A stretch of 19,399 nt of DNA from Nitrosopumilus sp. (GTDB lineage: Archaea > Thermoproteota > Nitrososphaeria > Nitrososphaerales > Nitrosopumilaceae): contig JAOUNZ010000004.1 of the NCBI GenBank assembly GCA_029880665.1, positions 1 through 19,399 of the forward strand, given 5' to 3'. Position numbers and translations under genes: made by a program. Shown here one piece after another: positions 381 through 19,000 of this stretch (positions within the stretch are counted from its first letter, which is position 1; every line of letters starts with the position of its first letter). The notes under the pieces were generated by a model, which saw nothing but the letters and a program-made list of their open reading frames with translations, was not told where the DNA came from and did no database searches.

Positions 381-3251
381 ATGACGATTAATTGGAATGC
401 GATTGAAGACAAATGGAGAAAAAGGTGGAACGAAACCAAAGACTTTGAGACAGATCCAAATGACAAGGAAAAAAAATTCATAACAGTTGCATACCCGTAT
501 CCCAACTCACCGCAACATATTGGGCACGGTAGAACATACACACTGGCTGATGTTCATTCAAGGTTTTACAGAATGCAAGGATACAACGTATTGTTTCCAA
601 TGGGGTTCCATTATACTGGAACGCCAGTGCTTGGGATGGCAAAGAGAATTCAATCTCAAGAAAAAGAGATCTTGGACGGGTTGAGAAACATTTACCATGT
701 TCCAGAAGAGGACATCAAAACATTTGTAGAGCCAATAAAGATTGCAGACTATTTTCATGAGGAGATAAAATCTGGCATGATTGAGATGGGGTATTCCATT
801 GATTGGCGCAGAGAGTTTACAACCATAGTTCCAGGCTATCAAAAGTTTATCGAATGGCAGATCACAACCCTCAAAGAAAACGGCAGAATCATTCAGGGCT
901 CTCATCCAGTTGGATGGTGTCCACGTGATCAAAACCCAGTATCACAGCATGATACGATGGGAGACGTAGAACCAAAGATCGATGACAAGAATTATCTAGT
1001 CAAATTCAAGCTGGATGATTTTATATTTCCAGTCACAACACTGCGGCCTGAAACAATTTTTGGGGTCACTAATCTCTGGGCGAATCCAAATACTGTTTAC
1101 AAAAAGATCAAAGCAGATAATGAAAGGTGGATAGTGTCAGAAGAATGTGCAAAGAAACTAGAGTTCTTTGAAAAAGAGATTTCAATTGAAGGGGACATTG
1201 TAGGCAGTGAGTTAATTGGAAAATACGCCACCGCGCTTCACAATGGCTCAGAAATTCCAGTACTAGAGGCAGACTTTGTAGAGCCTGGCATGGGGACAGG
1301 TTTGGTAATGTCAGTGCCAGCCCATGCGCCAAAAGACTACCAGGCATTGATGGATTTAAAGGCCGCAGGCCACGAACTAGCCTTAAAGATTGAGCCCATT
1401 CCAGTCATAGTCACTGAAGGATATGGCGACATTCCAGCAAGAGATGTATGTGAAAGACTGGGGGTAACTAACCAATCTGATCAAAAACTAGAAGAGGCAA
1501 CAAACGAGCTATACCTCAAAGAGTTTACCGGCGGAAAATTAAATGACAGATGCGGGAAATTCCAAGGAATCAAAGTAGAGTTTGGACGAGACAAGGTAAG
1601 GGAATGGCTGCAGGATAACGGACATCTAGAAAGATTCCCAGTACTTGAGAACGGTCCTGTAAGGTGTCGTTGCGGAACCGAATGTGTCGTAAAGATTCTA
1701 TCAAACCAATGGTTTTTGAATTACGGGGATGAGGAATGGAAAGAAAAGGCAAGAGATTGTCTTGACGGGATGAACATCCTGCCTAACAAAATCAAGACAG
1801 AGTTCAAAGACGTGATTGACTGGCTACACGAGCGAGCATGTGCAAGACAGCAGGGACTTGGAACAAAACTGCCATGGGACAAGGACTGGATTGTAGAGAG
1901 CCTGTCAGACAGCGTAATCTACATGGCATACTATGCCATTTCACGATTTGTAAATGATGGAACAGTATCTCCAGAGAACCTCACCAAAGAGTTCTTTGAC
2001 TATATTTTCCTAGACAGGGGAAACATTGCATCAGCTGCCCAGACTTCAAAGTTGCCAAGAGAGGTCATCGAGATGATGAAAAAAGAGTTCCAGTATTTCT
2101 ATCCAGTAGACTCTCGTCATTCGGGCAGGGATTTGGTTCAGAATCACTTGTCATTTTTTGTGCTAAATCACGTCGCAATATTTGATAGAAAATACTGGCC
2201 AAAAGAGATTGTAGTTAACGGCTCTGTAATGATGGATGGCGCTAAAATGTCAAAGAGCATGGGAAATATCATTCCGCTCCGAACCGCAATCAGGGATCAT
2301 GGTGCAGACCCGATCAGACTGGCAATAATATCATCAGCAGAGCTACTGCAAGACGCTGACTTTAACATGGAATCAGTCTCTGGCATTCAAAACAAGCTAG
2401 AGTCACTTCTTGAGGAATGCTCCAATACAAAAGAAGGGAAAATTGATAATTTAGAGGCTGAGGACAGGTGGATCTTATCTAAAATCCAGAGCATGATATC
2501 TGAGGTGACTGACGCAATCGAGAAGATGAGGCTGCGAGAAGCCTTGCATGATATTTTGTTTTCATTTGAATCTGATCTAAGCTGGTATCGAAAAAGGACA
2601 GAGGCAAAAGGAAGGAAAAACATTTCAGGGATATTGCACAGGATAATCTCCGTACGAGTTGCAATGCTGTCTCCATTTGCCCCACACATATCTGAAGAGA
2701 TGTGGGAAAGACTTGGACATTCCAACCAAGTGTCAAAATCAGCTTGGCCTGAATATTCCAAAGAAAGTGTCGATGCCACATCAATCCAGGCAGAAGAATT
2801 ACTCAAATCAACAATTGACGATATTGCAAACATACTCAGAGTTACAAAGATCACTCCGCAAAAGATTGTAATCTATGTCAATTCCGATCAGTTCAGACTA
2901 ACCGTATATCGCAAGATACTTGGCATAATGGTGAGAGGTCAAAACAACATGGGGGATGTGATGAAAGAGTTGATTGCAGACCCTGAGACTAGAGAAGCCA
3001 AGAAGATGCCAGACTATATACAAAAAGTAATCAAGGATTTACATTCAGAGTCAGAGGTTATCAAAGAGATGAAATTGAAATCAAAGGGGTTTGATGAGAA
3101 AGAATTCTTGTCTTTGGAACTAGGAGACATTGGCAGAAAAGAGTTCGGGGTGGAGATACAGGTGTACTCTGAATCAGACAGCGACATTTATGATCCCAAG
3201 GGCAAGGCAAGGCATGCAAGGCCGTTCAAGCCTGCGATCCTGATTGAGTGA
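381..3251 (+). CDS. leuS: leucyl-tRNA synthetase, archaeal type (956 aa)
   Basis: Long uninterrupted ORF with an ATG start. Class I signatures are present: HIGH-type motif (PQHIGHGRT) and KMSKS (AKMSKSMGN). It has CP1 editing-domain length and an archaeal-style C-terminal extension. Confidence 0.95.
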   Translation: MTINWNAIEDKWRKRWNETKDFETDPNDKEKKFITVAYPYPNSPQHIGHGRTYTLADVHSRFYRMQGYNVLFPMGFHYTGTPVLGMAKRIQSQEKEILDGLRNIYHVPEEDIKTFVEPIKIADYFHEEIKSGMIEMGYSIDWRREFTTIVPGYQKFIEWQITTLKENGRIIQGSHPVGWCPRDQNPVSQHDTMGDVEPKIDDKNYLVKFKLDDFIFPVTTLRPETIFGVTNLWANPNTVYKKIKADNERWIVSEECAKKLEFFEKEISIEGDIVGSELIGKYATALHNGSEIPVLEADFVEPGMGTGLVMSVPAHAPKDYQALMDLKAAGHELALKIEPIPVIVTEGYGDIPARDVCERLGVTNQSDQKLEEATNELYLKEFTGGKLNDRCGKFQGIKVEFGRDKVREWLQDNGHLERFPVLENGPVRCRCGTECVVKILSNQWFLNYGDEEWKEKARDCLDGMNILPNKIKTEFKDVIDWLHERACARQQGLGTKLPWDKDWIVESLSDSVIYMAYYAISRFVNDGTVSPENLTKEFFDYIFLDRGNIASAAQTSKLPREVIEMMKKEFQYFYPVDSRHSGRDLVQNHLSFFVLNHVAIFDRKYWPKEIVVNGSVMMDGAKMSKSMGNIIPLRTAIRDHGADPIRLAIISSAELLQDADFNMESVSGIQNKLESLLEECSNTKEGKIDNLEAEDRWILSKIQSMISEVTDAIEKMRLREALHDILFSFESDLSWYRKRTEAKGRKNISGILHRIISVRVAMLSPFAPHISEEMWERLGHSNQVSKSAWPEYSKESVDATSIQAEELLKSTIDDIANILRVTKITPQKIVIYVNSDQFRLTVYRKILGIMVRGQNNMGDVMKELIADPETREAKKMPDYIQKVIKDLHSESEVIKEMKLKSKGFDEKEFLSLELGDIGRKEFGVEIQVYSESDSDIYDPKGKARHARPFKPAILIE

Positions 3252-3301
3252 TCAGAATACCAAGTGTTAACGAGCTTATCGACAAAGAGTAAAAATAGAA
3301 T

Positions 3302-3315
3302 CCCCCCCCCTTTTT
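3302..3315 (+). terminator. C9 followed by T5 homopolymer tract; candidate oligo-T terminator for leuS
   Basis: tCCCCCCCCCTTTTTa lies about 50-60 nt after the leuS stop. Archaeal RNAP terminates at oligo-T runs. A C9 run is conspicuous in this AT-rich sequence. Confidence 0.35.
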
Positions 3316-3594
3316 ACGAACAAAATTGTGCTATGTTTTGAGATGACAAGCTAAATGTCAAGATAAAAACAAGGGAAAAGATCCCGATCTGATCCAGATT
3401 GGAAAAAAGAAATAGACTATTAATAATTGGACATCTTATGAAAAATTGTCTCATGGCAGGCGTTATACTACGCTCTACAAGATTGCAAATCTTGCGGGAA
3501 CGTACCAGTCTGTCATGAAGACCCCTAGTACATAATGCACTAATGAAATTTGTAAATGTATCTTTAATTTAATATTTTATACTACTCTTTCAAT

Positions 3595-4461
3595 TTATAA
3601 TCCTTCTATTTTATTTTTAATAATGATATGAGATAAGGGTAATGGCATTGACTCATTCATTCTTCCATCATCCATACTCTCAATTCTTCCCAACCAAAAC
3701 CTCTTCCTGTCTGCATTAAGATTAAACTCTCTTGTTTGCGGTTTGATTTTACCAATGTCTCCAATTCTATTTTGAAGAATGGATGATCTTAACCTGCTAT
3801 TCCTATTTACAACAAAACTATAGTATAATCTCCTGTTCTTCTCAAATGTATCTAGATGCTCAATTTCCTTGCCATTTAGTTTGCCTAGACCTCTCTGCTT
3901 CCACTTGCCATTGAACCGATAGAAACCATTCTGTAAAACAAACACGTCACTAGCCTCATTGTCAAAGGAAAAATCACCCAGTTCTGTAGAATTCACACCA
4001 AGTCTCTTTCTGGTGCATATGGAATCCGTGGCAAAGAACACTACATCCTTCTCAATGCCATTTTTACGCACAAAATCGTACAATTGGGCACGGCAAAAGC
4101 CGGTGATAAAGGCAAAGATTACGGGATTGAATAGATTTCCAATCATATGATTTACACTCTGCCCTGTCTTGCCATAGATGGAATTCAGGATTATCTTGAT
4201 TGGCAACTGCAAAGGATTGTTCTGTTGTTTTAGTTCCATTCTTTTCTGGTATAATTTTTGAATGAAATCACGGTATGGATAAATATCAGATTCGGGTATG
4301 AACTGATATCCTTCAAGAATCCTGTAGAAGGTTTTACTTTCACAGGCTTGAAGTTCTGCTAATGTTACATACGTCTCAAACTTTCCTGACGGAAAAATTG
4401 ATGAGTTATTTTCTTTCGGAATTCCAATTTTAAAGGAAGTTACACTTGCACGCGTATCCAT
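3595..4461 (-). pseudogene. family B DNA polymerase, protein-primed type (pPolB), C-terminal palm/thumb fragment only (288 aa)
   Basis: Motif B Kx3NSxYG is present as KIILNSIYGKTG. The motif C region reads VVFFATDSI (canonical YxDTDS). Downstream ELGDFSFDNE....FYRF resembles the LGxWxxE...KxY segment of phi29-type polymerases. No Exo I-III motifs and no motif A (DxxSLYP) are present. The 210 nt upstream (4462-4672) has no frame that continues the ORF. Confidence 0.7.
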
Positions 4462-4620
4462 TCATACCTATTGTGAAAAATTAAAAAATTTAGATAATTA
4501 TGGAGAATTTGTCAATCTCATTCCAGATTCCACCCTAATCCTAGAACGAATTGATGCTGCACTCAAAAATTTACCTGAATCAGGACTGCATAAGAAACAA
4601 TTCTTCTCTTTATCTATTTT

Positions 4621-4646
4621 TTCACAATCTTAGATAGGATTGTGAA
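4621..4646. repeat. perfect 9-bp inverted repeat TTCACAATC-N8-GATTGTGAA; a third ATTGTGAA copy at 4470-4477
   Basis: Read directly from the sequence. The hairpin or operator-like palindrome lies between the stop of the 4673-5206 gene and the PolB-fragment start. The third half-site sits 9 nt upstream of the PolB-fragment ATG. Confidence 0.6.
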
Positions 4647-4672: not shown

Positions 4673-5206
4673 TTATTTCTTATCTTTTAAAGATAAAAAC
4701 ATGTTCTTTACATTTTCCCAATCATACATCGTACCTATAACCGTTATATCGAGTGGACTCCGTTCTTCTATCCGTTTTATTTTAATAAAATCATATTTGC
4801 GTTCTTTCTTTCCATCTTGATATACTACAAGTAATTTATTTGCCAGAAAATGATAGTCACCAACTTCAAGACGGATTATACTGTCAAACTTAATCTCAAA
4901 ATTAAGATCATTCTTCATATCCTGCTCAAAATCTTCATAGGTGTATTTCCCGATTAAATGAGATATTTCATGTTCTGTGTCAACACCCATTCCCCGTGCA
5001 ATATCTTTGCCTAGGTCTTTCCAAGCACCATCTACTTTTTCCTCCTTTAAATTTTCAGAACTGCTACTTGTTACAATAGCTATGGAATCGGTTGTTAAGA
5101 TTAAGAATCCTTTTCTTCCTGGTGAGAAAAATTTTTTTTCCTTTAACCATACAAATGGTTCAATACGCTTGATTTCTTTTTTCAAAATCCCACAATCTTT
5201 GTACAT
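4673..5206 (-). CDS. hypothetical protein (177 aa); weak resemblance to bacterial PH-like (bPH/YokE-like) domains
   Basis: ATG-initiated ORF with no competing frame. The segments GFLILTTDSIAIVT and IRLEVG...LLVVYQDGKK recall bPH beta-strands, but this is a pattern impression only. Confidence 0.55.
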   Translation of the reverse strand: MYKDCGILKKEIKRIEPFVWLKEKKFFSPGRKGFLILTTDSIAIVTSSSSENLKEEKVDGAWKDLGKDIARGMGVDTEHEISHLIGKYTYEDFEQDMKNDLNFEIKFDSIIRLEVGDYHFLANKLLVVYQDGKKERKYDFIKIKRIEERSPLDITVIGTMYDWENVKNMFLSLKDKK

Positions 5207-5267
5207 TCACTTACAATTAAGATTTTTTTACTAGTTCTTAATTGAATTTTCATAATCCTATATAAGA

Positions 5268-6012
5268 TTAGGTAACAGCACTAAGCAATTCTAAAACAAT
5301 TTTATTCCCAGGATCTAACTGTAATACCTTCTCAAATAATTGCTTTGCATTATCATCAGATCCACGTTCTGCAAACCACTCTCCCTGCTCTATTAATGAC
5401 TGAATGACTTGCTCTCTGAATTGTGCAAGTTTGTTTATCATTTCACTGACTTTGTCCTGATCATCTTGTTACAGGTATATTGACAACAAACTCGACAGAG
5501 CATCAGAGTTGTTTCTGTCAATATCCAAGGTATCATCATAGTAAGATTCTGCCGTACCAGATTTCCTGATTTTAGTTGAGCATTTGCTATGCCATTTATG
5601 GTTACGATTCTCTCAGAGTTTATTTCAAGTGATTTTCCAAAGTATTCCATTGCCAAATCTTTGTTTGATGATTTTTACTCGGTATTTTTCCCCTTCTGAA
5701 TGTCTTGGGCTAATTGAGTAGATCTGCCGTTATCAAAAAATTTCCCACAATCATCCTCGACGTATAAAAATTCTTTACTCCGTCAAACTCTTCTTCAGTT
5801 TCAATTATTTCAGCAATGGTTTCTTTCCCAACTTTTTTTTCAACGTTCTCAACTTTCATAATAGTGAAAACACCCTTATCATCCAGTTTTGAAAGCGGTG
5901 ATTCGGCCATATCCTACTCGCCATCTTGCCCATCAGTATTGACATTGTCACATTCAGGCATTGACATTGAAATTTGATCATTTTGTTTTATCAAATAATC
6001 CAGCGCGTTCAT
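5268..6012 (-). pseudogene. decayed gene with a TPR-like C-terminal half; at least 2 frameshifts and 3 in-frame stops
   Basis: A sensible protein can be followed only by crossing five disruptions: TAG at 5914-5916, a frameshift near 5762-5775, TAA at 5675-5677, a frameshift near 5552-5560 and TAA at 5469-5471. The pieces read KDLAMEYFGKSLEINSERIVTINGIANAQLKSGNL / TAESYYDDTLDIDRNNSDALSSLLSIYL / ...GEWFAERGSDDNAKQLFEKVLQLDPGNKIVLELL, which is TPR-like. Track ORFs 5438..5656 and 5710..5910 are fragments of it. Confidence 0.55.
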
Positions 6013-6091
6013 AATGACGCTGATTTTATCCTATTGATAATTATTTTCTTTGGAATCAGATCATGTTAGAACTTATCAAACCATGCAGATG

Positions 6092-6343
6092 TCATTGCTT
6101 GTCATGAGTGTTTAGTTTTTTGAAAATCTCTTGATACTTGTCAAACTCGTCAAGTTCCTCCAATCTCATTATTTGAATAAGGTTTGCAGTCTCATCTATT
6201 AGCTTGGCAAGTCGTCGCAGCGATTGGTCATATTCTTTATCTTCCTTGTTTTCCCATTCTTCTAGTCTTGTCTTAAAGAATTCAATGCGGCCAAGTTTGT
6301 AGTCAATTTCGCCTGTCAATATTTTAATTGATTCTGGTTTCAT
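6092..6343 (-). CDS. hypothetical small K/E-rich helical protein (83 aa)
   Basis: ATG ORF. Its start overlaps the stop of the upstream ORF in an ATGA 4-nt overlap (6340-6343), which suggests a translationally coupled pair. No recognisable family. Confidence 0.5.
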   Translation of the reverse strand: MKPESIKILTGEIDYKLGRIEFFKTRLEEWENKEDKEYDQSLRRLAKLIDETANLIQIMRLEELDEFDKYQEIFKKLNTHDKQ

Positions 6344-6537
6344 TCCAATCCTTTTTCCAGTTTGATTTTTGCAATAACGTCTCTGACCAGTTCCTCATCT
6401 TTTATGACTAATTCTTGAAGCTTTTTCTTGTATTTCTCATCACCCCATTTGTCTTGACTAAACATCTCTTTGACTAGATTTACAATTTCAGATTTGTTTC
6501 TCTGATGGTCTCGTTTTGCAATTTCAGAGCCTTCCAT
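6340..6537 (-). CDS. hypothetical small helical protein (65 aa)
   Basis: ATG ORF coupled to 6092..6343 by a 4-nt overlap. Charged, coiled-coil-like composition. Confidence 0.45.
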   Translation of the reverse strand: MEGSEIAKRDHQRNKSEIVNLVKEMFSQDKWGDEKYKKKLQELVIKDEELVRDVIAKIKLEKGLE

Positions 6538-6707
6538 AAATTTGTCAGAACGATTTTAAACTTAAGCGTAACTGAAATCCACCGAGTCCTGATCATCTTT
6601 ATTTCCGGTAATCGCGGCAGATTGAGTTTGAACTTTGCAAATTTGAAGCCAGACGCCATTGTACAGTCCTAGGAACTGCATAGAGGGCTTGAGTCTGTTG
6701 GCAGATC

Positions 6708-6914
6708 CTATTTTTTCTTCAGTTTCTCAATGGCCTTGTTAATCTTCTCAACGTTTGAACTCCAGATCTTGACCATCTTCTCTTCGTTTGCAATCTCCTT
6801 TTTCGTTCCCACATCTTTGAGCTGCTTCATCTTGTCCAAGTGTCTCCGAAGGTTGTCCTGTGCTTCTGCCAGCTTCTTTTGTTGATATCCGAGAACTTTA
6901 TCTGCAAAGCCCAT
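6708..6914 (-). CDS. hypothetical small coiled-coil protein (68 aa)
   Basis: ATG ORF with heptad-like K/E-rich sequence. It is divergent from the zinc-ribbon gene at 6996. Confidence 0.45.
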   Translation of the reverse strand: MGFADKVLGYQQKKLAEAQDNLRRHLDKMKQLKDVGTKKEIANEEKMVKIWSSNVEKINKAIEKLKKK

Positions 6915-6995
6915 AATTTTCCTTGTTGTATATTGGTCTTAAGCGTGTTGGGGAACAGTCCAACATTCTTAAGGCCACAATTCCAACAAAAACAG

Positions 6996-7229
6996 ATGAC
7001 GTTATTTTGCAAGCAATGCAGCAGTAGACGATTACCAAAGTATATTGAAGCAGAAAAGACCACATTATGGTTATGCGAAAAGTGCAAGAATTTTACAGAT
7101 ATCAATGATCTTGTTATTCGCAAGCAGACAGACGAGGAAAGAGAGACAGCCAAAAGAAAAGAAAAGGAATTTGAAGAATCCACAAATTTTCCAAAAGCAA
7201 AATTGAACAGAAGAAAGGGCGTAAACTAG
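6996..7229 (+). CDS. zinc-ribbon protein with a charged tail (77 aa); start re-set to an internal ATG of track ORF 6840..7229
   Basis: MTLFCKQCSSRR...LWLCEKCKNF gives CxxC-N17-CxxC. The first 52 codons of the track ORF are Cys/Leu-rich junk that overlaps the opposite-strand gene 6708..6914. Confidence 0.55.
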   Translation: MTLFCKQCSSRRLPKYIEAEKTTLWLCEKCKNFTDINDLVIRKQTDEERETAKRKEKEFEESTNFPKAKLNRRKGVN

Positions 7230-7268
7230 ATCAGCAATGCAAAAACTTACAAAATTTGTGTTCAAATC

Positions 7269-7288
7269 AAGATTACTATTGTAATCTT
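7269..7288. terminator. hairpin AAGATTAC-TATT-GTAATCTT between convergent genes, followed by a T5 run at about 7302
   Basis: An 8-bp perfect stem (10 bp with one bulge) lies 40 nt after the 6996..7229 stop and 57 nt after the stop of the - strand ORF 7345..7479. Confidence 0.3.
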
Positions 7289-7344
7289 TGACTGGAAGTT
7301 ATTTTTCAGACCATACAGTTTCAGAAACCAGAGGAATTAAAGAT

Positions 7345-7479
7345 CTAATATGTTTGTAATCTTCGATATTTTTCTTCTAGCTTTTCATGTACATCTAGTT
7401 TTTTATTTGAATCAGCGATCATTCTGAGCCCTGAAATTGTGTTTTCAAAGATTTTTATTTTTTGTTCTTTTGTTGTCAT
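7345..7479 (-). CDS. possible small helical protein (44 aa, below the track threshold)
   Basis: ATG...TAG ORF read by hand: MTTKEQKIKIFENTISGLRMIADSNKKLDVHEKLEEKYRRLQTY. It lies 39 nt downstream of the 7519..7698 gene on the same strand. The only support is the ORF and its context. Confidence 0.3.
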   Translation of the reverse strand: MTTKEQKIKIFENTISGLRMIADSNKKLDVHEKLEEKYRRLQTY

Positions 7480-7518
7480 GCTATATTAGGCAGTTCATCA
7501 CAGATAAAGATAAACATC

Positions 7519-7698
7519 CTAGACTCCAAATGGATCAGACTTGCATCTTGGGCATTTAGAGCCATCTGTCTTTGTCCCACACTTTGCACAATGAATGTCA
7601 ATTCCCACGATATCATGTGGGTTAGTCTTTGATACCTTTACAATCAGGACTATGGCTAGTAAGACACCTATTGCAAGCCCTATCCATATCAGTACCAT
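7519..7698 (-). CDS. membrane-anchored zinc-ribbon protein (59 aa, missing from the track)
   Basis: Hand translation: MVLIWIGLAIGVLLAIVLIVKVSKTNPHDIVGIDIHCAKCGTKTDGSKCPRCKSDPFGV. It has an N-terminal TM helix followed by CxxC-N8-CxxC. A/T-rich TATA-like sequence lies 20-30 nt upstream. The overlapping + strand track ORF 7595..7807 looks spurious. Confidence 0.55.
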   Translation of the reverse strand: MVLIWIGLAIGVLLAIVLIVKVSKTNPHDIVGIDIHCAKCGTKTDGSKCPRCKSDPFGV

Positions 7699-7879
7699 GG
7701 TGTTCCATTCCCTTTATGCCTTAAAAACCAGTGACGATGGAAATTGTAATCAGAAAAACCAAGATTGGACATGCCCTTTATCTGTCGGGCTGAACAATGG
7801 CAGATGAATGCACAGAATTCAACCGTTTAACGGCATATGTTGTATTAGATGATAAAAGGCATTCATTTCAGATGCGGTT

Positions 7880-8482
7880 TTAGAATTTGTTCTCAAAAAC
7901 CACGTCAGATAGCGGCAATTGCCCGCCTCTGGGGGGCGCATCTTTGGTCTTTTTTCCCACAACCACCATCATAGATATGATGTGATCTGTTGGCAGATTA
8001 ATCATGTTTCCAACCGCGTCATAGTCAAATCCCTTCATTGGGCATGTGTCGTATCCCATGGATTTTGCTGCAATCATTATTGTCTGGGCTGCCATGCCAC
8101 AAGAGCGCATTGCCTCATCTCGTTGTTGCTGGAGTTTTCCACTGTATGAGTTTCTAAGAGACTTGACTAATGCATTGCGTGATTCTTGCGGCATGTTTGC
8201 CCAGTATCTCTCAGGTTTTTTGTCCCAGGAGTTCAAGTCAGCGCATAAAATTATCACAAGTGACGCGTCAGATACTTGCTGTTGTCCGTGAGAGAGCTCA
8301 GATAATTTGTCTTTGATTGCCTGATCAGTTATTGTAACAAATCTCCAGTTTTGGATGTTGTATGATGTTGGAGACAGGACTGCAAGTTCCAAGAGTTTGT
8401 CAATCTCAGATTTTGCCATTTTGTGGTTTTTATCAAAACTTTTCACAGAGCGTCGTTGGTTAATTGCATCAAGTGTGTCCAC
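7880..8482 (-). CDS. nitroreductase family protein (200 aa), GTG start
   Basis: The N-terminal DAINQRRSVKSF plus SPTSYNIQNWRF is the classic nitroreductase (NfnB/NfsB-fold) opening. The length is typical. No upstream in-frame ATG exists. Confidence 0.85.
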   Translation of the reverse strand: MDTLDAINQRRSVKSFDKNHKMAKSEIDKLLELAVLSPTSYNIQNWRFVTITDQAIKDKLSELSHGQQQVSDASLVIILCADLNSWDKKPERYWANMPQESRNALVKSLRNSYSGKLQQQRDEAMRSCGMAAQTIMIAAKSMGYDTCPMKGFDYDAVGNMINLPTDHIISMMVVVGKKTKDAPPRGGQLPLSDVVFENKF

Positions 8483-8589
8483 GATACAACAAAAAAGATA
8501 CCAAATTTAAAAGATGAGTGGAGTTAAGAGTGATTCTAAAAGGAGTGGCCAGAGAGATCACATCTTAAGATCAGTGATGTTCAATCTCT

Positions 8590-8639
8590 GATGACAGATG
8601 TCATCCAAGATCTGAGACGTTGGTAATCAGATGACAGAT
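8590..8639. promoter_or_regulatory. two copies of GATGACAGAT (8590-8599, 8630-8639) in the divergent intergenic region; the first is part of the palindrome GATGACA-GA-TGTCATC
   Basis: Read directly. They sit in the unusually long 257-bp spacer between the divergently transcribed nitroreductase and flavoprotein genes. Confidence 0.35.
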
Positions 8640-8739
8640 TGTCTTGTTAAACATACCGTGCAGTTTTGATATTTAACCGGCATTATTTCCTACTAACAAT
8701 CAATGCCAGAAAAATTTCCAGATAGTATATTTATTAGGC

Positions 8740-9774
8740 ATGATTCAATCGCAAATCATCTTGAAGATTGCAGTAATGGGAATGGGTGTTGCAGGATCTT
8801 ATCTCATGGCACGACTAAAAAATTCTGAACATGAGGTTGTAGGTTATGAAAGAAATGTTGAAGAAAAACATGATTCAATTTGTGCATGGGGAACAATCAA
8901 ACCAGTGCTAAGAGAGTTTTGTAAAAAGACAGGAAGAAACTTTGATGATTTTTTGATTCATGACGGCAAAAACATGCATGTCAAGATGAACGATAATGTG
9001 AAATTTGATATCGGATTGAAGGGGTTATGCACATATGACAAACTTGGGCTGATCAAGGACTTCATAAAAGACTCAAAGATAATTTATGGCCAGACTCCAA
9101 AGCTTGAGGAATTGGAAAAAGAGTATGACATGATAGTTGACTGCACTGGGTTTAACAGAGTATATCTTCCAAAACTAAAGGAGGATTTTTTCCTGCCAAC
9201 ATACGAATACAAGGTAGAGTATGAAAATGGCTTGCCATATGACGACTTTTACATCGAGCCATTTCCTGGAATGTCAGGATACTTTTGGTATTTTCCACTA
9301 GGTGAAAAATGGGCACACATTGGCGCAGGAGATTACAATAAACAGCACATCAAAGCAACAGACGAGTTTTTGAAAAAACATGGAGGCAAAGTGATTGCAA
9401 CAAAAGGACGTCCAATTAGACTTGCAACTCCAGATAGATGCAAGCCATACTATTCAGGCAAAGTGGTGGGTGTTGGCGAATCAATTGGAACAGTTTATGC
9501 GTTGCTGGGGGAAGGAATCATTCCATCAATGCAGTGTGTTGAGATATTTTTAGAAAACATGAACGACTTTAAGGCATATGAGAAAGCAGTAGAGAAACAC
9601 TACAAAGTATATGCAAAAGTGTTTAATTTTGTCAGGGCAAAAATTCACAAAGACTTTAGTTTCTTCAAGGCATTGCCAGATTTTATCTCAATATTTAGAT
9701 ATATGAAAAAGAATGAAGACAGGTTTGGAATGGACATTAAAATTGCTGATCTGATGAAAGTAGCTAAAGCCTAG
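8740..9774 (+). CDS. FAD-dependent oxidoreductase, geranylgeranyl-reductase-like family (344 aa)
   Basis: N-terminal Rossmann GxGxxG (IAVMGMGVAGSY). GYFWYFPLGEKWAHIGAG matches the GYxWxFPxG...vGxG block, and GVGESIGTVYALLGEGIIPSM matches the GDAAGxxxPxxGEGI block of GGR/FixC-type flavoproteins. Its stop shares the palindrome CTAG (9771-9774) with the convergent gene. Confidence 0.6.
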   Translation: MIQSQIILKIAVMGMGVAGSYLMARLKNSEHEVVGYERNVEEKHDSICAWGTIKPVLREFCKKTGRNFDDFLIHDGKNMHVKMNDNVKFDIGLKGLCTYDKLGLIKDFIKDSKIIYGQTPKLEELEKEYDMIVDCTGFNRVYLPKLKEDFFLPTYEYKVEYENGLPYDDFYIEPFPGMSGYFWYFPLGEKWAHIGAGDYNKQHIKATDEFLKKHGGKVIATKGRPIRLATPDRCKPYYSGKVVGVGESIGTVYALLGEGIIPSMQCVEIFLENMNDFKAYEKAVEKHYKVYAKVFNFVRAKIHKDFSFFKALPDFISIFRYMKKNEDRFGMDIKIADLMKVAKA

Positions 9775-10475
9775 ATGAAACTCACAGAGCTGAATCCTTC
9801 TCTGGTTGTTCTATTTGAGGCCATATTGTAATCATAGATTGTTTTTGAATATGCCTTGAATTCGTCCTTCATAGGATCTAGGTTTTCTGCCAAGTAAAAC
9901 CCAGGGCAATCACCTGTAAACTGATAAGTTGCATGGACACGAGCCTTTCCCTTTTCATTTTCAAGCCAGCTGGAAAAAGGATACAGATAGCAGACCCCAG
10001 GCCTGTCTGGATGCATACTGCAGCCTCCTTTTTCATCTAAGAATCTGCAAGAGATGTGCGTCCCATCATCTTCTTCAGTTTCATCGTTTTTTCTTTTTAG
10101 ATTAATTGTAGTCATTGTAGTCATCTGCCCAGAGGGCCCAGGTTCCTGATATGTAACAGTAAGGGTTTCATTTTTTACAAAATCAGACGGCTTTCTGTAT
10201 TTTAGACCATTTCCAATTGTAATCAGATCATCAGATGTCAATGGTAGCCTTCCTTGTCTATCGCAGCAGTTATGGCAATCAGGCCAGTAGCATTTCCACA
10301 AAATGTATTTTTTTTCAGAATTCAGATAGGGCACATGAAACACCACGTCTTTTACTTTGATTGGATAGTCAGAGACATCTGTAATTCTACCCAACATGAA
10401 TTCCCGCAGAATTGGATCTACAGTCCAGTCTTTTTCTAACAAGTTTAGAGATTCTTCAATTTCTTTTTGTGACAA
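9771..10475 (-). CDS. YkgJ/UPF0153-type Cys-cluster (putative Zn/Fe-binding) protein (up to 234 aa; start uncertain)
   Basis: CYWPDCHNCC followed by CRFLDEKGGCSMHPDRPGVCYLYPF matches the CxxCxxCC ... C.fl...g.C.iy..RP..Cr.yP architecture. The track start is a TTG immediately after a stop. The first ATG is 26 codons further in (10397). Confidence 0.75.
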   Translation of the reverse strand: MSQKEIEESLNLLEKDWTVDPILREFMLGRITDVSDYPIKVKDVVFHVPYLNSEKKYILWKCYWPDCHNCCDRQGRLPLTSDDLITIGNGLKYRKPSDFVKNETLTVTYQEPGPSGQMTTMTTINLKRKNDETEEDDGTHISCRFLDEKGGCSMHPDRPGVCYLYPFSSWLENEKGKARVHATYQFTGDCPGFYLAENLDPMKDEFKAYSKTIYDYNMASNRTTREGFSSVSFI

Positions 10476-12965: not shown

Positions 12966-14513
12966 TTAGTTCAGAAATCCAAATAGAGAGCCCAAAGTGG
13001 AAAATACAAGACTTATTTCATCAATAAAGTTAGTCGGTTCTTGTGTTTTCTGATTGGTTTGCATAAGTTTTTCAGATATGGGAGATGATTCTGTAGAAAC
13101 AATATTTTCAATAGAGTTTGTTGGCGTATGGTCTAAATTATCAATATTTGCATTCAGTGACAATACAATATCAAGATTGTTTTTGGCAGTTAGATAAGTA
13201 GGGCTTTTATCTAAGACTTCGTTATATAATGAAATGGCAGCATCGTAATTTCTCAGATTTGCAAGGGCATTTGCCTTATTATTTTTAGCAGGCAAAAAGT
13301 CAGGATCAATTTTGAGTGCCTGGTCATAGTACATTATTGCCTCAGAAAAACGCCCTAATTTTCCTAATGCAGAGCCCTTGTTTGCAAGGACTTCAGTATT
13401 GTTAGGAGTTTTGGCCAATGACTCATTAAAAGAATTCAAAGAACTATCAAATTTACACAGCCTATACAAAGCAGGCCCCATTCCATCATAATATGAAATA
13501 GTGTCAGTCAAGATGCTAGAATCACATTCTAGATTAATTTGGTTTAGCATTATTCCAAGTTCTACATCTTCAACAGAGAGATTATTTTGTTTTTTAAATT
13601 CAGAATTATTTGTTTTTGAAACAAAATCATTATTGTTATCATTAATTTTTTTAATTGGTGCATCAGATCCTTGAACAACACCAGTATCAGTTGTTTGCAC
13701 TTTAGGAGATTTCTCTTTGGTGTCTGCAGGATCATCTTTGGTGTCTGCAGGATCATCTTTGGTGTCTGCAGGATCATCTTTGGTGTCTGCAGGATCATCT
13801 TTGGTGTCTGCAGGATCATCTTTGGTGTCTGGAAGAATTTCATAATAATCAAAAAAAGATATCATTTCCGCTTCGCCATAGTGGGCTTTAATCGAATATG
13901 TCCCGTCAACTCTAAAATTAACTCCAGACTTGACAAGAAAACTTGTAGAGAATTCCAGATTAGAGTCAACTGAACCAAAATAAAACCCTCCCGGCATTCC
14001 AAACGGATCATAAATTCCAATCAACACCGATGGGGAATCTATTGCAGAGACCAGACCTGTGATTTTAATTACATCGTTATCTGTATATTGTTTTTTGTCA
14101 GTGTATAGTAAAATTATTTCAGTGTCATCAAAGGTTTCAATAACGATTTCAGGATCAGAATTATCTATTGTAAAAAAATGATTTTCGGAGATCTTTCCGT
14201 AGCTAATTTTTACTGCATATTCTCCAGATTTTTCATAAAAGATAGAATCCAAAACAAAGTTTTTTGAAAATGTCTTGTTGGGTAAAATCTCCAAGTTATT
14301 GGCAGATAGTATTTTTCCATCCGGATCATAAATACTCATGGCAATTACTGGCATTCCAAAGTCAAGAATCTCACCTGATATGGTGATCGAATCACCACTG
14401 CTGTATACTGGCTTGTCAAAAGTCACAGTGAATGATTCGGCAAAAATGTCTTCTAAGATTAACGGAGACAGTACGGTTAACACTAGAGTAATTGCTGCAA
14501 AGTATCCTAACAC
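12966..14513 (-). CDS. secreted/cell-surface protein: signal peptide, two beta-sandwich-like repeats, acidic DTKDDPA linker, three TPR repeats, hydrophobic C-terminal tail (515 aa; GTG start)
   Basis: Hydrophobic N-terminus (LGYFAAITLVLTVLSPLILEDIFA). Two domains of about 110 aa each open with DKPVYSSGDSITISG and DKKQYTDNDVIKITG. TPR-like stretches include GRFSEAIMYYDQALKIDPDFLPA and RNYDAAISLYNEVLDKSPTYL. The C-terminus is ISLVFSTLGSLFGFLN. Confidence 0.8.
   Translation of the reverse strand: MLGYFAAITLVLTVLSPLILEDIFAESFTVTFDKPVYSSGDSITISGEILDFGMPVIAMSIYDPDGKILSANNLEILPNKTFSKNFVLDSIFYEKSGEYAVKISYGKISENHFFTIDNSDPEIVIETFDDTEIILLYTDKKQYTDNDVIKITGLVSAIDSPSVLIGIYDPFGMPGGFYFGSVDSNLEFSTSFLVKSGVNFRVDGTYSIKAHYGEAEMISFFDYYEILPDTKDDPADTKDDPADTKDDPADTKDDPADTKDDPADTKEKSPKVQTTDTGVVQGSDAPIKKINDNNNDFVSKTNNSEFKKQNNLSVEDVELGIMLNQINLECDSSILTDTISYYDGMGPALYRLCKFDSSLNSFNESLAKTPNNTEVLANKGSALGKLGRFSEAIMYYDQALKIDPDFLPAKNNKANALANLRNYDAAISLYNEVLDKSPTYLTAKNNLDIVLSLNANIDNLDHTPTNSIENIVSTESSPISEKLMQTNQKTQEPTNFIDEISLVFSTLGSLFGFLN
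13719..13831. repeat. perfect 21-bp tandem repeat GGTGTCTGCAGGATCATCTTT, 5 full copies plus an 8-nt partial copy, in frame (heptapeptide DTKDDPA)
   Basis: Counted directly. The copies start at 13719, 13740, 13761, 13782 and 13803, with a partial copy at 13824-13831. All five full copies are identical at the nucleotide level. Confidence 0.95.
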
Positions 14514-14564: not shown

Positions 14565-15746
14565 TCATTCAACTGTTATTGACGTAGACGTTAGATTAGA
14601 TAGCGGTATGGGATCATTTAGAGAATTCCAAACAAACGTTTCAATACGATATATTCCAGATTTCTCAGGAACCCAAGATTGTGAGACATCTAAACGTTGT
14701 TTTGATGACAGTTCGCCTTGAACCCACGAAATTGAATCTACTGAATTATTTGCATTCTTAACTTGAAAGAGATAAACAAATTTTTGTTTATACTCTTGAT
14801 CATTTTGTATGGTTCCAACTATTTGCAACGGAGTATTTGCCGAAAAAGAATCCATCTTATTTGCAAAGATGTCAGAAAAGGTAATTGGCAAGTTTGTCAG
14901 GCGTTCAGTTGATGAGATAGATGAATCAACCACAGCAAAAGTTTCAATTTCCAGATGATCTGATTTGGAAAATGGTTTTGGCAGTGTATAATCAGCATAT
15001 TTTGCAGATAGTTTATCTCCAGGTAGGGCATAAAGCCTGTTCCCACTTGAGGGTAAAGTTTGGGACAATGATATTGTTCCAACAAAAGAGCCGGAGCTCT
15101 CAGATGTTTCTATTCCTTCAATTTCAATTCCTGCAGTATCAGAATCTGAGAATATTTGTATCTGAATGTGATCTAGTGCCTCAGGATTAAGATTCATGTC
15201 AGGATCAATTACACGAATCATTACAGAGGCATTATACAAAGGAATTTCTTTCAGAAAGGAAATAGAGCCAACATTCCAAGTGACAGGAACGGACTTGACT
15301 AGCACTACTCCATCTGCAAATTCAAAAGAGATCGTTACAGAAGAATCTCTATCAACTTCTAAAAATCCACTGGTAGGACCTTTGCCGGTTGTTCGCGGCA
15401 TAGTGTCAATATCTCCATCGCCATTTGCATCATGTGGGAAACCTGTAAGGGTAATCTCAGCTGTAAAGATTCCAGAATTCACATTTGTCTCAGTAAACCT
15501 ATAGGATTTCAGAGAGTTCTCAGAGGTATTAATTTTAATTGCATGATCTGCGTCATCGCCAATTGAATCAATCAAATGGTTATCAGTATTCCAACTCGGT
15601 GCAAGAATAGTCATTTTTATTTTATCTGTCCAAGTATACACGGGCTTGTCTGTAAAAATTGGTGCATATGGTTTATCATAATTTGGAATTGGTTCAGCAA
15701 ACACAGGAAGAAGAATCAAGGGCAAAAACAAAAAGAACAAGTGCAT
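14565..15746 (-). CDS. secreted protein (393 aa) with a signal peptide and beta-rich repeats; related opening motif to the neighbouring 515-aa protein
   Basis: MHLFFLFLPLILLPVFA/EP is a signal peptide. DKPVYTWTDKIKMTILAP resembles the DKPVY..D.I.I domain opening of the adjacent gene. No TM segment or recognisable catalytic motif. Confidence 0.8.
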   Translation of the reverse strand: MHLFFLFLPLILLPVFAEPIPNYDKPYAPIFTDKPVYTWTDKIKMTILAPSWNTDNHLIDSIGDDADHAIKINTSENSLKSYRFTETNVNSGIFTAEITLTGFPHDANGDGDIDTMPRTTGKGPTSGFLEVDRDSSVTISFEFADGVVLVKSVPVTWNVGSISFLKEIPLYNASVMIRVIDPDMNLNPEALDHIQIQIFSDSDTAGIEIEGIETSESSGSFVGTISLSQTLPSSGNRLYALPGDKLSAKYADYTLPKPFSKSDHLEIETFAVVDSSISSTERLTNLPITFSDIFANKMDSFSANTPLQIVGTIQNDQEYKQKFVYLFQVKNANNSVDSISWVQGELSSKQRLDVSQSWVPEKSGIYRIETFVWNSLNDPIPLSNLTSTSITVE

Positions 15747-15790
15747 GACAAAAAGTACTCAGTATTGAATTTAATGTTTGGTGAAGTATG

Positions 15791-16030
15791 CTAGGATTCG
15801 TCTTCAGGCAAAGATACTGCCAATATATTGTCGCCACGGAGTAAAATTTTTCCGAGTTTTTCTGTTTTTCCTTCAGAGATATCCTCAGCATCATCCAGAG
15901 TCAGATTCATGTGAATGTCAAAATCAATCAGAGTGCCTTGAACAGTTCTTGTATTTCTCAATCGAAGTAAAACAACTTTATTCTTACTATTATTCATCAA
16001 TGTTGTAATTTCATCTGCCATAATTGTCAC
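15791..16030 (-). CDS. Sm-like (LSm/SmAP) RNA-binding protein (76-79 aa)
   Basis: Sm1 motif VLLRLRNTRTVQGTLIDFDIHMNLTLDDAEDI and Sm2 motif LGKILLRGDNILAVS. The track start is GTG at 16030, abutting the rpoA stop (16031-16033). An in-frame ATG at 16021 is the more likely start. Confidence 0.9.
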   Translation of the reverse strand: MTIMADEITTLMNNSKNKVVLLRLRNTRTVQGTLIDFDIHMNLTLDDAEDISEGKTEKLGKILLRGDNILAVSLPEDES

Positions 16031-19000
16031 TCATTTCTTTTTGGAGACTTGCATGTACAAATCAACAGTGCCACTTCCAATTGGAATGTTGCTTCCGACA
16101 ATAACATTTTCAGTAATGCCTTTAAGATGTTCAATCTCTCCGGCAAGCGCGGCGTGTGCAATTGTTGGAACTGTGATTTCAAATGCAGCTCTTGCAAGAA
16201 CACTGTCTTTAGTACCAGCAATGCCGTGCCTACCAATTTGTTGCATGTAGCCTCTTGAACACATCAAATCAGATACGAGCATGATGTATCTATTATCAAC
16301 TTCTAATCCTTGGTCTCCCAAAGTATTGTTAAGCTCATCAATTAAGGAGTTTCTTGCGGCTTCAATGCCCAAAGTTCCTGCAATTTCAAAGACGTTGTTT
16401 GTTCTTACATTTCTTTTATCAATTCCGTTAACTTCAAGCACCTTGGCAACGTTAGAACCGGTTGTTTGGATAACCCATTCATCACCCTTTTGAACGAGTG
16501 TGACACGCTCGATGTCTGGAACTCCCTTTACGGTAGTGTTTAGAACTTTGTTTCTAATTGCAATCACAGTTGCAGTATCAGACTCTTCAACCAGTTTTAG
16601 CGTGATCATCTCACCGGTAGTTTCCGTTTTGAATTTCTTGTTGGATGCAAGCGAAGCCTCAACTTCGGCAATCGAGCATCCTCTTTCTTTGAGTCTGTTT
16701 GGACTTAGGATTAATGATATTTGTGTAGAATAATCAGTCTCGCTGTTTGAAATCAATGCACTTACTTTTGTTTGTAAGACATTTCTTGCAACCTCAATTG
16801 CTTTTTCTCTAGACTTTTTTGATTCTTCATTAAGGTAGATGTCCATTGTTGGTGTGACTGGTTTCTTTCTAGCATCAACCAATTCAATCAATCTTGGCAA
16901 TCCTAACGTTACGTTTCTTTCTTTAATTCCTGCAAAGTGGAATGTTCTTAGAGTCATCTGAGTACCAGGTTCACCGATTGACTGTGCGGTGATAATTCCG
17001 ACCGCCTGACCAGGTTCTACTTTTGCTTTGTTGTATAACGAAAGTCCTTTTTTACATACAGCTTCTACACCTTCTTTGCTGAGATTGGAATGAAGTAACG
17101 CTTCAGTTACAAGTGAAGTTAATCTTGGATTGAATGTCTTTGTGTATTTTTTGGCAAGTGTCTCAATCTCATCTTTTGTTGCCTTGTTTCCGGAATCTAT
17201 GATGGTTTGTGACTCTGCTAATCTGCTTGGGTTGAATGCTTCACCATGATCGCTCTTTTGCACATCAATGCCATCTTCACCGTAAAGGAACTGAATGATG
17301 TGACCGTGTGGGTCCCTTACAGTTCCGTCATATTCTAGTCTAATGTGTTCTAATGCATTAATTAGTCTGCGTTGCATGTAACCGCTTTGTTGTGTTCTAA
17401 CTGCCGTATCTACAAGTCCTTCACGGCCTCCCATTGCATGGAAAAAGAACTCTAATGCGGAAAGGCCTTCTCTATAATTAGATTTTACAAATCCATGGGC
17501 ATCAGGATTACTGTCATGTTCTTGGAAATGTGTTAATGCACGATTTTGGAAACCGTCATGTAATCTATTGCCTCTTCTTGATTGTTGACCCAATGCACCT
17601 GCCATCTGCCCAATGTTCAAAGCTGAGCCTCTTGCACCGGTAGTAGCCATGATTCTTCCAGCGTTAGTCTGATCAAGAGATTGGTCTGCAGTAGATCCGG
17701 CCTTATCTCTTGCTTTACCTAATTCATTAACAATGTATGCTTCTAGTGCTTCTTCGGCCTTCATACCCCTAGTAAGTTTAAGAGTTCCTTTCTCATATTG
17801 ATCGGTCAGATCAGAGATTACATCATAAGTTCCTTGAATGTCAGTCAAAATTTGTTGTCTTTCTTTTTCTGGAACTTCAAGATCACCATAACCATAACTA
17901 AAGCCATAATGTGTGATGAATTGTTTTACCATAATCAGAATTGAGTTAAGGAATGTTTTTCCTACACTGTTACCATAATCTTTAGTAATTCTATGAAGAA
18001 CACTTTCCGGCTCTTCTGCTCCAATTGAGGCTTTGTCAATTACACCACTGATTAATTGACCATTTTTAATTACAACATCTTTTGGCGAACCTTGCGTGCC
18101 CTTTGACCATTTTGATGTAAGGACATAGTTGAAATCTTTTGGAAGGAACAATGAGAATAACTGTTTTCCAGTATATGCGGGACCGTCTTTTGTTTTGGTA
18201 CTAGGTTTTGGAAGAAGATCAGTGTAACCACCAAGCATTGCATAATTTGAAAATTCTTGGACAGTTAGAGTTGTATCGTCCTTAGTTAGAAGGTATGCTC
18301 CAGTGACAAAGTCTCTTAGCGCTCCAATAATTGGACCGCCATATCTTGGAGAAATAATTTGATCTTGAACTCTCATCAAAAGAATTGCTTCTGCTCTAGA
18401 TTCTTCACTTTGAGGAACATGAAGATTCATTTCATCACCATCAAAATCTGCGTTGTAGGGAGGGCAGACAGACGGATGTAATCTGAAAGTTTTACCAGGA
18501 AGCACACGAACATAGTGTGCCATAATAGACATCTGATGCAATGATGGTTGTCGGTTAAACATCACAATATCGCCATCGGCCAAATGTCTTTCAATCAAAT
18601 ACCCGATCTCAAGAGATTCGGCAATAATAGAGCGGTCTTCAACGAAATCTAGTCTAATCTTCACACCGTCAGGTCTAACGATGTAGTTTACACCTGGAAA
18701 TTTCTCAGGTCCGTTGATCACAAGTTTTCTCATTCTATCAATATTCCATTCCGTCACAATTTCAGGAATTGTTAGCTTCATAGCTACTTGTTCAGGAACA
18801 CCCACTTCAGACAAATCCAAATTAGGATCTGGTGAAATCACGGTTCTACTTGAAAAGTCAACTCTTTTTCCAGAAAGTGATCCTCTGAATCTGCCTTCTT
18901 TTCCTTTGAGTCTTTGGGTTAATGTCTTGAGTGGACGACCAGAACGATGATGAGCTTGAGGTATTCCAGAAACTTCATTATCAAAATAGGTCGTGGAATG

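Follow-up and report, generated by a model that had tools for sequence, protein, structure and literature searches.

The question raised by the locus described here is whether a short, tidy reading frame that resembles half of a DNA polymerase is still a gene. The window, which is the whole stretch of 19,399 nt that was analysed, contains a minus-strand open reading frame (ORF) of 288 codons. [quoted passage not shown] A preliminary description, made from the sequence without database searches, proposed that the ORF is either a recently truncated pseudogene or an exapted, catalytically dead polymerase domain.

Identity and extent of the ORF

The frame is as it was first described: the translation starts with ATG and contains both a motif B of the KxxxNSxYG type (KIILNSIYGKTG, aa 89-100) and a motif C region, FFATDS (aa 142-147). 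The codon that precedes the ATG is TGA; thus, the stop-to-stop length of the ORF is also 288 codons, and the frame does not continue upstream, in agreement with the preliminary description. The assignment to the pPolBs is borne out by significant profile matches, to Pfam family PF03175 (DNA_pol_B_2; E 7.7e-10, 38.7 bits against a cut-off of 25.8) and to PHROG 11768, "DNA polymerase" (E 1.5e-28), in which aa 16-190 of the ORF align with profile positions 345-531 of 647.

An exhaustive HMMER search found 2420 relatives of the ORF. The complete relatives are 575-665 aa long, typically ~595 aa, with 590-636 aa for the full-length proteins used in the comparisons, and HMMER, tblastn and a protein alignment (A1) agree that the ORF corresponds to their last ~270 residues, that is, to family residues ~325-592. 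For example, aa 20-279 of the ORF align with residues 333-592 of the relative P0122 in the HMMER search, and residues 336-592 of the same protein match window positions 4395-3625 by tblastn (E 1e-73). Firm pPolB homology spans 3625-4412 (tblastn, alignment A1). The full-length relatives in alignment A1 contain the exonuclease motifs Exo I (DTET), Exo II (NLGFD) and Exo III (YCIxDC), motif A (YDINSAYP, the form that DxxSLYP takes in this family), and motifs B and C. The ORF starts ~40 residues downstream of motif A, and neither Exo I-III nor motif A is present in it. Since the break falls downstream of both the exonuclease domain and motif A, and a tblastn search with seven full-length relatives revealed no N-terminal polymerase remnant in the window beyond 3625-4413, the reported absence of these parts holds. 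Such a remnant is also missing within ±10 kb of the identical gene on two other contigs.

An AlphaFold2 model of the ORF, built with a 57-sequence alignment, has a mean pLDDT of 72.6 and a pTM of 0.43. A Foldseek comparison of this model with the PDB gives no match at E <= 0.001, the weak matches to Pyrococcus PolB having E ~1. A PDB search with the family profile gives no match, and one with the single protein returns only coronavirus spike proteins (best E 3.8e-4), a resemblance that consists of short, low-scoring stretches and is spurious. Because there is no usable structural match, the domains listed in Table 1 are mapped by sequence alignment. The polymerase fragment also matches, in 50 separate stretches at 34% identity, a database protein of 5975 aa (P0128), which represents a giant repetitive protein or, if mis-predicted, an array of polymerase-derived repeats.

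Motif C

In PolB structures, the second Asp of motif C is a metal ligand. The preliminary description treated FFATDS as a canonical YxDTDS motif that has lost its first Asp in this ORF, and took the change as a pointer to catalytic death. Neither point survives comparison with the relatives. All 120 of the closest homologues shown by the first search have xFATDS or a close variant, and FATDS is also found in full-length proteins with every other catalytic motif (tblastn set, alignment A1). Indeed, Ala in place of the first Asp is the consensus, present as well in 28 of 28 intact genomic copies that have the exonuclease motifs and motif A. By comparison, T145, D146 and S147 are invariant in a second alignment of 57 sequences (A2), T145 and D146 are invariant in A1, and the Thr, Asp and Ser of motif C are invariant across the alignment of the 28 intact copies. 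In His2, a replicating virus, the polymerase reads VMFATDC at this position. Since the first Asp is absent from all homologues shown, from the intact copies and from His2, its absence is a trait of the clade rather than a lesion. Judged from these alignments, FATDS is the normal state of this polymerase clade, including members that putatively work. Consequently, it would be wrong to infer from an xFATDS motif C that a casposon or His2-type polymerase is inactive.

Full-length relatives lie in family-1 casposons

A scan of one genome per species, for which motif-B peptides served as search patterns, identified 56 pPolB loci, nearly all in Nitrosopumilales. Clustering of the neighbouring genes reveals, in 15-28 loci, three small conserved ORFs that immediately precede the polymerase gene. 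A protein of 290-345 aa, encoded a few kb from the polymerase in 22 loci, is Cas1 (PF01867, E 1.6e-42). The elements are bounded by 34-55-nt inverted repeats (TAAAAATAGAATCCCCCC...) and short direct repeats, and they often abut the 3' end of the aEF-2 gene. They thus fit the published description of family-1 casposons, transposons that replicate themselves in ammonia-oxidising archaea: cas1, a pPolB gene, three small genes, and the 3'-distal part of aEF-2 as the target (PMC4046053; PMC6563490); casposon targets other than aEF-2 are on record, aEF-2 being the commonest rather than a universal one (PMC6563490).

The casposon copies are 50-88% identical to the ORF. In a neighbour-joining tree of the C-terminal half, the ORF groups with the marine Nitrosopumilus and Nitrosarchaeum copies from loci L007, L004, L006, L005, L017 and L008; this tree and the identities together uphold the suspected kinship with thaumarchaeal casposon polymerases. 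Of the genomic copies, 41 are uninterrupted by a contig end, and 28 of these are intact, with ORFs of 590-640 aa.

Several of these loci have unusual arrangements of their own. The N-terminus of Cas1 is joined directly to the C-terminal part of the polymerase in L005, L033 and L047. In Nitrosarchaeum sp. LAS73, the element at L033:9677-10809 measures 1.13 kb. It has terminal inverted repeats (TIRs) of ~50 nt that are nearly perfect and share their subtype with the window's casposon end, a 13-bp duplication (ATTAAAAATCTAT) at a non-canonical target site, and a single ORF of 306 aa (protein P0119) in which Cas1 residues 1-43 are fused to polymerase residues ~278-497. This element is a recently moved, non-autonomous mini-casposon. 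The same species contains two full-length casposons back to back beside aEF-2 (L004:5540-~17400), with convergent polymerase genes at 8543-10318 (+) and 14625-16442 (-); the pair is a tandem or nested insertion. Older, degenerate ends (...AAAAAGGCAACGCCCCCCTTTTACGAAT, reverse complement), at L018:3326-3365 and L013:4482-4521, lie outside the distal target-site duplication (TSD) of complete casposons at aEF-2. These solo ends show that insertion at the same target was repeated and left ends behind.

Break point and upstream flank

Profile searches and alignments with the relatives locate the truncation at family residue ~325. At the DNA level, similarity of the ORF to other casposon copies stops at 4398-4412 (blastn, pairwise DNA alignments); thus, the first ~16 codons, including the ATG, are junction sequence. 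A conserved PPFPFR segment of the family (alignment A1, columns 382-402) is missing from the ORF, and past 4412 the DNA resembles none of the casposon loci. The ATG probably arose at the deletion junction or was brought in by it.

The A/T-rich stretch that had been reported upstream of the ATG is there, as a run of 17 pure A/T nucleotides (TAAATTTTTTAATTTTT) at -14 to -30, and it is moderately unusual: in a frequency control, a 10/10 A/T stretch at -36..-18 is found at 2.5% of window positions and at 4.4% of positions within the surrounding low-G+C island. Given this background the stretch is real, yet not decisive. It could be a putative TATA-like element. A σ70 promoter scan of the window was set aside as inapplicable to archaea. 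The non-coding gap between the polymerase fragment and the upstream ORF of 177 aa also contains a 19-nt inverted repeat (4470-4488 and 4610-4628; 84% complementary, 121 nt apart).

A casposon end behind leuS

The polymerase fragment is oriented towards a casposon end, as is the polymerase gene of the complete casposon in L018. Past the stop codon of leuS, the order of sequences is ...ACCAAGTGTTAACGAGCTT, then ATCGACAAAGAGT, then AAAAATAGAATCCCCCCCCCTTTTTACGAAC..., which correspond to a leader, a casposase TSD and a casposon terminal end (Table 1).

Table 1. Features of the window from leuS to the upstream flank of the polymerase fragment.
Feature	Position	Strand	Basis or remark
Leucyl-tRNA synthetase gene leuS, host gene that marks the insertion site	381..3251	plus	ORF translation; Pfam families in L060
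Leader, copy of the last aEF-2 codons (...NELIDKE*)	3259..3277	plus	Starts 7 nt past the leuS stop
Casposase TSD ATCGACAAAGAGT, 13 bp	3278..3290	plus	Single copy in the window
Casposon terminal (inverted-repeat) end AAAAATAGAATCCCCCCCCCTTTTTACGAACAAAATTGTGCTATGTTTTGA...	3291..~3354	plus	blastn, TIR identity
Sub-terminal non-coding stretch, casposon end to polymerase stop	3355..3594	unstranded	~240 nt
Truncated pPolB ORF	3595..4461	minus	3' ~45% of a family-1 casposon protein-primed PolB gene
Domains kept in the ORF	3595..4461	minus	Part of TPR1, fingers with motif B, C-terminal palm with motif C, thumb
Junction region, first ~16 codons MDTRASVTSFKIGIPK including ATG	4413..4461	minus	pPolB DNA homology lost or doubtful
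Upstream flank, non-casposon origin	4462..4500	minus	With 17-nt A/T run TAAATTTTTTAATTTTT

Together, leader and TSD form a 32-nt copy of the aEF-2 3' end (3259-3290) just past leuS. For the casposase of N. koreensis, a 13-bp TSD has been determined experimentally, and a short T-rich leader is also needed (PMC8464041). The TSD of the window is identical to the N. koreensis TSD (ATTGATAAAGAGT) at 11 of 13 positions, and the leader ends in CTT/TTT next to it. The same TSD flanks the casposons in L018 and L004. The casposase target arrangement, GCTT followed by ATCGACAAAGAGT and then by AAAAATAGAAT..., is present at 3274-3301, on one side only. Within the casposon end, TAAAAATAGAATCCCCCC is identical at 18 of 18 positions to both TIRs of the complete casposon in L018, and 3291-3354 as a whole is matched by casposon ends in L004, L007, L033, L001/L017 and L006 (blastn). 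When 3259-3307 is compared with the true aEF-2 3' end and adjoining casposon end of L018, 43 of 49 positions are identical.

The remainder of a casposon is missing. The window contains no second casposon end at up to 3 mismatches, no inverted repeat partner and no second TSD copy. A tblastn search with 22 casposon Cas1 proteins gives nothing in the window below E 0.01, and the three small casposon genes (clusters 1-3, with members from 15-28 loci) likewise have no tblastn match there. Cas1 and the other missing parts are also absent within ±10 kb on the two contigs with the identical gene. For the sub-terminal stretch at 3355-3594, blastn finds no homologue among 59 genome loci and 119 metagenome loci.

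The element has an aEF-2-type target, yet its neighbour is leuS, not the aEF-2 gene itself. A second Nitrosopumilus genome (the MAG of L044), whose LeuRS is 90.7% identical, has the same junction of leuS, leader and TSD (L044:3640-3680; 88% over 111 nt), followed in that case by a complete casposon of a different lineage and in the opposite orientation. Since this junction is used in both the window and L044, it is a real, re-used casposase target. Consequently, casposons have, downstream of leuS, a secondary target that is conserved, has been re-used and mimics the aEF-2 site.

Genomic context

The window is a segment of a Nitrosopumilus-like chromosome, with genes for the AlaRS C-terminus, LeuRS, the ribosomal proteins S7 and S12, NusA, L30e and RpoA'. 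An island of ~4.6 kb, filled with small minus-strand ORFs, separates leuS from a nitroreductase gene (7880-8482); its G+C content is lower, at 32-37% versus 40-44%. The island ORFs at 4673-7700 have no significant Pfam match and no homologue in other pPolB loci. The 177-aa ORF next to the polymerase fragment has only two homologues, 68% identical, in HTTM/AsnC contexts. These island neighbours are unlinked to casposons. Scans of the window for tRNA genes and Rfam families give nothing.

Two features of the surrounding genes are recorded here. Adjacent ORFs of 57 and 72 aa (5268-5656, minus strand) have weak similarity to TPR repeats and look like one TPR gene that has been frameshifted, a further sign of island decay. 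A minus-strand ORF at 12966-14513 encodes a secreted or TPR protein in which the peptide DTKDDPA is repeated five times in tandem (13640-13760). Since the sole length difference between the window and the near-identical contig of L060 begins at ~13748, the number of these repeats appears to vary.

A probable remnant of a decayed casposon

The ORF is very probably a recently truncated pseudogene, the remnant of a decayed family-1 casposon that inserted beside leuS (probability about 0.85). The homology, the truncation point, the end with its TSD and leader, the missing casposon parts and the series of decaying copies elsewhere can be read directly from the loci, and from these the order of events would have been as follows. 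A family-1 casposon, integrated by Cas1 and encoding its own pPolB, would have inserted past leuS in a Nitrosopumilus-like chromosome, at a target composed of the aEF-2 3' end copy and the 13-bp TSD, with the polymerase gene facing that end. A later deletion or replacement would then have taken everything beyond polymerase codon ~325: the exonuclease domain, motif A, the three small genes (including a candidate for the terminal protein), cas1, and the distal end. What would be left are the leader, the TSD, one casposon end, a spacer of ~240 nt, and the 3' half of the polymerase gene. By chance, the deletion junction would have supplied an ATG after a stop codon together with an A/T-rich stretch, so that the remnant reads as a tidy 288-codon gene. 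Both the tidy ORF and the A/T run upstream of it are best explained by a young deletion and an A/T-rich flank.

A product of this ORF could not polymerise, since it lacks the motif A aspartate, which is one of the two catalytic aspartates, as well as the proofreading domain. With the terminal protein and a replicable element also missing, the product most likely does nothing.

Decay of this kind is common among the relatives. Of the 41 genomic copies that are not cut by a contig end, 13 are degraded, and each is degraded differently: some are truncated, at family residues between ~135 and ~383, and others have in-frame stops or frameshifts. Within the window's own clade of the neighbour-joining tree, degraded copies account for 6 of 7. 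Beside the same subtype of casposon end, 3' remnants of the polymerase gene encode 288 aa (window) and, on metagenome contigs, 122 aa (L111), 80 aa (L154, at a true aEF-2 site) and 32 aa (L112/L155). In a collection of 5.8 billion proteins, the closest other protein is 88% identical, and the exact ORF is found only on near-identical contigs (one mismatch in ~13.7 kb in L060); thus, the truncated form is specific to this strain. Casposon decay commonly leaves 3' fragments of the polymerase gene that gene callers report as tidy ORFs. Fragments of this kind, 170-500 aa long, number well over a hundred in the protein databases, a few of them owing merely to a contig end. For the window, the locus is a decayed copy of a known transposon family, and an annotation as "DNA polymerase" would mislead.

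The ORF itself shows slight signs of drift. A Gly that is invariant in the 28 intact copies is replaced by Arg, the PPFPFR segment is lost, and the C-terminus is extended by 3 aa relative to the relatives. Otherwise, the surviving half is conserved to the degree of intact genes, which speaks against a relic: it deviates at one of 37 invariant columns, a number within the range of the intact copies. Pairwise dN/dS between the ORF and its relatives is 0.07-0.14, as in pairs of intact copies, with dS saturated (0.9 to >3); a crude three-taxon estimate from these values gives a terminal-branch dN/dS near 0.05. Such low values are equally compatible with a very recent truncation and with continued purifying selection. 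Because dS is saturated, the comparison has little power and most of the dN/dS signal dates from the time when the polymerase gene was whole; the values suit a truncation that happened late on a long terminal branch.

Alternative explanations

Of the two possibilities left by the preliminary description, the recently truncated pseudogene is favoured by the decay series and by breaks that differ from copy to copy, and exaptation has found no positive support. An exapted, catalytically dead polymerase half would be kept and expressed as a DNA- or terminal-protein-binding protein, for example as a dominant-negative inhibitor of incoming casposons or of viruses that encode a pPolB. Such a role would suit the intact 288-codon ORF with its ATG and A/T-rich upstream stretch, the near-complete conservation of invariant residues, and the low dN/dS (obtained with saturated dS); it would also suit the window's clade, in which 6 of 7 copies are degraded yet C-terminal halves are still recognisable. 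However, the apparent excess of C-terminal remnants arises from ascertainment, motif-B peptides having served as the search patterns. The truncated form is found in no other species represented in the 5.8-billion-protein collection, and the break points vary (P0122 residues ~278, 294, 325, 340, 345, 357 and 383). Moreover, the remnants in L005, L039, L043 and L047 have stops inside this same half, a series of decay extends down to remnants of 122, 80 and 32 aa, and an otherwise invariant Gly has become Arg. There is no conserved neighbour either: the upstream 177-aa gene is an ORFan with two homologues in unrelated contexts. Exaptation is therefore improbable, and the narrower proposal, that this dead polymerase half itself is kept as an inhibitor, is if anything slightly more so.

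Three other origins are less probable still. pPolB genes are also found in archaeal viruses, and the ORF has distant matches to His2, to Acidianus bottle-shaped viruses and to a Methanosarcina spherical virus, as would be expected if it were the remnant of a virus or plasmid with a pPolB gene rather than of a casposon. However, these viral proteins are 23-34% identical to the ORF versus 50-88% for the casposon copies, the 27-nt leader-plus-TSD sequence is absent from 2.9 million viral contigs (IMG/VR), and ~240 nt from the stop codon there is a casposon end, oriented as expected and accompanied by its leader and TSD. This origin is very improbable. The ORF might also be one half of a split polymerase, with the exonuclease domain and motif A encoded elsewhere and the two halves cooperating; nothing speaks directly for this arrangement, the inspected stretch being ~30 kb of a 187-kb contig. 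Against it, the break falls inside a conserved segment (PPFPFR is lost) and not at a domain boundary, the first 16 codons are non-homologous, none of the 28 intact copies is split, and, with Cas1, the terminal-protein candidate and the second end missing, there would be nothing to replicate. A split polymerase is scarcely credible. An assembly artefact, with a chimeric join within the polymerase gene, is equally hard to credit: repeats such as casposon ends can cause breaks or mis-joins in metagenome assemblies, but here the break lies in unique coding sequence, and the same arrangement is present on two further contigs from other samples, L060 with one mismatch in ~13.7 kb.

Comparison with known elements

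The casposon remnant of the window most closely resembles the family-1 casposons of Nitrosopumilales, such as NitAR1-C1/NitSJ-C1, NitAR2-C1, NitNF5-C1/C2 and NitDev-C1 (Krupovic et al. 2014, 2019). It shares with this family the polymerase, which is 50-88% identical to copies that lie beside Cas1 and the three small genes, the type of terminal repeat, and a TSD and leader that match the casposase target of N. koreensis. Unlike these casposons, the window retains one end, 45% of the polymerase gene, no Cas1 and no small genes, and its element lies past leuS, at a copy of the aEF-2 3' end. Decaying casposons have been described before, namely a second casposon remnant in Methanolobus psychrophilus R15 and NitNCS1-C1, with its fragmented PolB. 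Like these, the element in the window has lost genes and ends after integration, and its polymerase gene is broken. However, both of the earlier examples are family-2 casposons with a PolB of the RNA-primed type, whereas the window contains a family-1 element in which a one-sided deletion has left a clean ORF.

Among viral polymerases, that of His2 (Gammapleolipovirus) belongs, according to the literature, to a sister clade and shares motif B and the FATD motif C with the ORF. It is 23% identical to the ORF, but unlike the ORF it is a full-length (720 aa), active viral polymerase. The phi29 DNA polymerase belongs to the same Pfam family, PF03175, with the same order of motif B, motif C and thumb; its motif C is YCDTDS, in contrast to xFATDS in the window's clade. 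PDB searches and Foldseek give no significant sequence or fold match between the phi29 polymerase and the ORF.

Dispersed copies of the target sequence

The copy of the aEF-2 target past leuS has been used more than once. Since casposon targets have been discussed as precursors of CRISPR leader-repeat units, this copy, together with the dispersed units described below, may merit a study of its own. These units were identified as metagenome contigs (L066-L184) that match the 27-mer at window positions 3264-3290. The 27 nt of leader and TSD (GTGTTAACGAGYTYATCGACAAAGAGT) are present in at least 119 metagenome contigs. Among the matches listed, only about six lie behind real aEF-2 sequence; the others are preceded by at least 77 distinct sequence contexts, and a casposon-type end follows the 27-mer in ~117 of 121 occurrences. 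Also among the matches listed, 102 of the 119 contigs contain the 27-mer with none of Cas1, pPolB and aEF-2, and long contigs run from the unit straight into host genes. Right casposon ends are absent near the units in the contigs listed. The conserved unit is ~110 nt long and sharply bounded on both sides, and subgroups of units have a further 40-100 nt upstream in common. Two units in the same orientation are present in L086 (324 nt apart), L128 (1283 nt apart), L151 and L149. Short cassettes with tiny ORFs of the zinc-ribbon type lie between such paired units, and the same ~90-nt module precedes each 27-mer; in layout, they resemble a small array.

The units may be travelling landing pads, rearrangements at casposase sites, or, in part, assembly chimeras at the repeat. 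It is conceivable, if doubtful, that leader and TSD, instead of being rearrangement debris, constitute a portable landing pad for the casposase that travels with casposon ends and seeds integration hot spots; use of the leuS site by two different casposons in two species, as well as the wide dispersal of the units, would support such an idea. If it were true, family-1 casposons would spread their own leader-repeat-like target, and the units would stand, as a natural intermediate, between site-specific transposons on the one hand and leader-repeat arrays on the other.

Other identities for these sequences were considered and discarded. The 27-mer was discarded as a viral attP, having no match in the IMG/VR viral contigs, and one group of 27-mer sites that had seemed to abut a tRNA gene has no tRNA there. 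A motif that recurs in the metagenome loci (CCTTCCCAAAAAATAATTT) was taken as a candidate for a sequence specific to mobile elements; it also precedes ordinary host genes, and it is therefore treated as a promoter consensus of the lineage.
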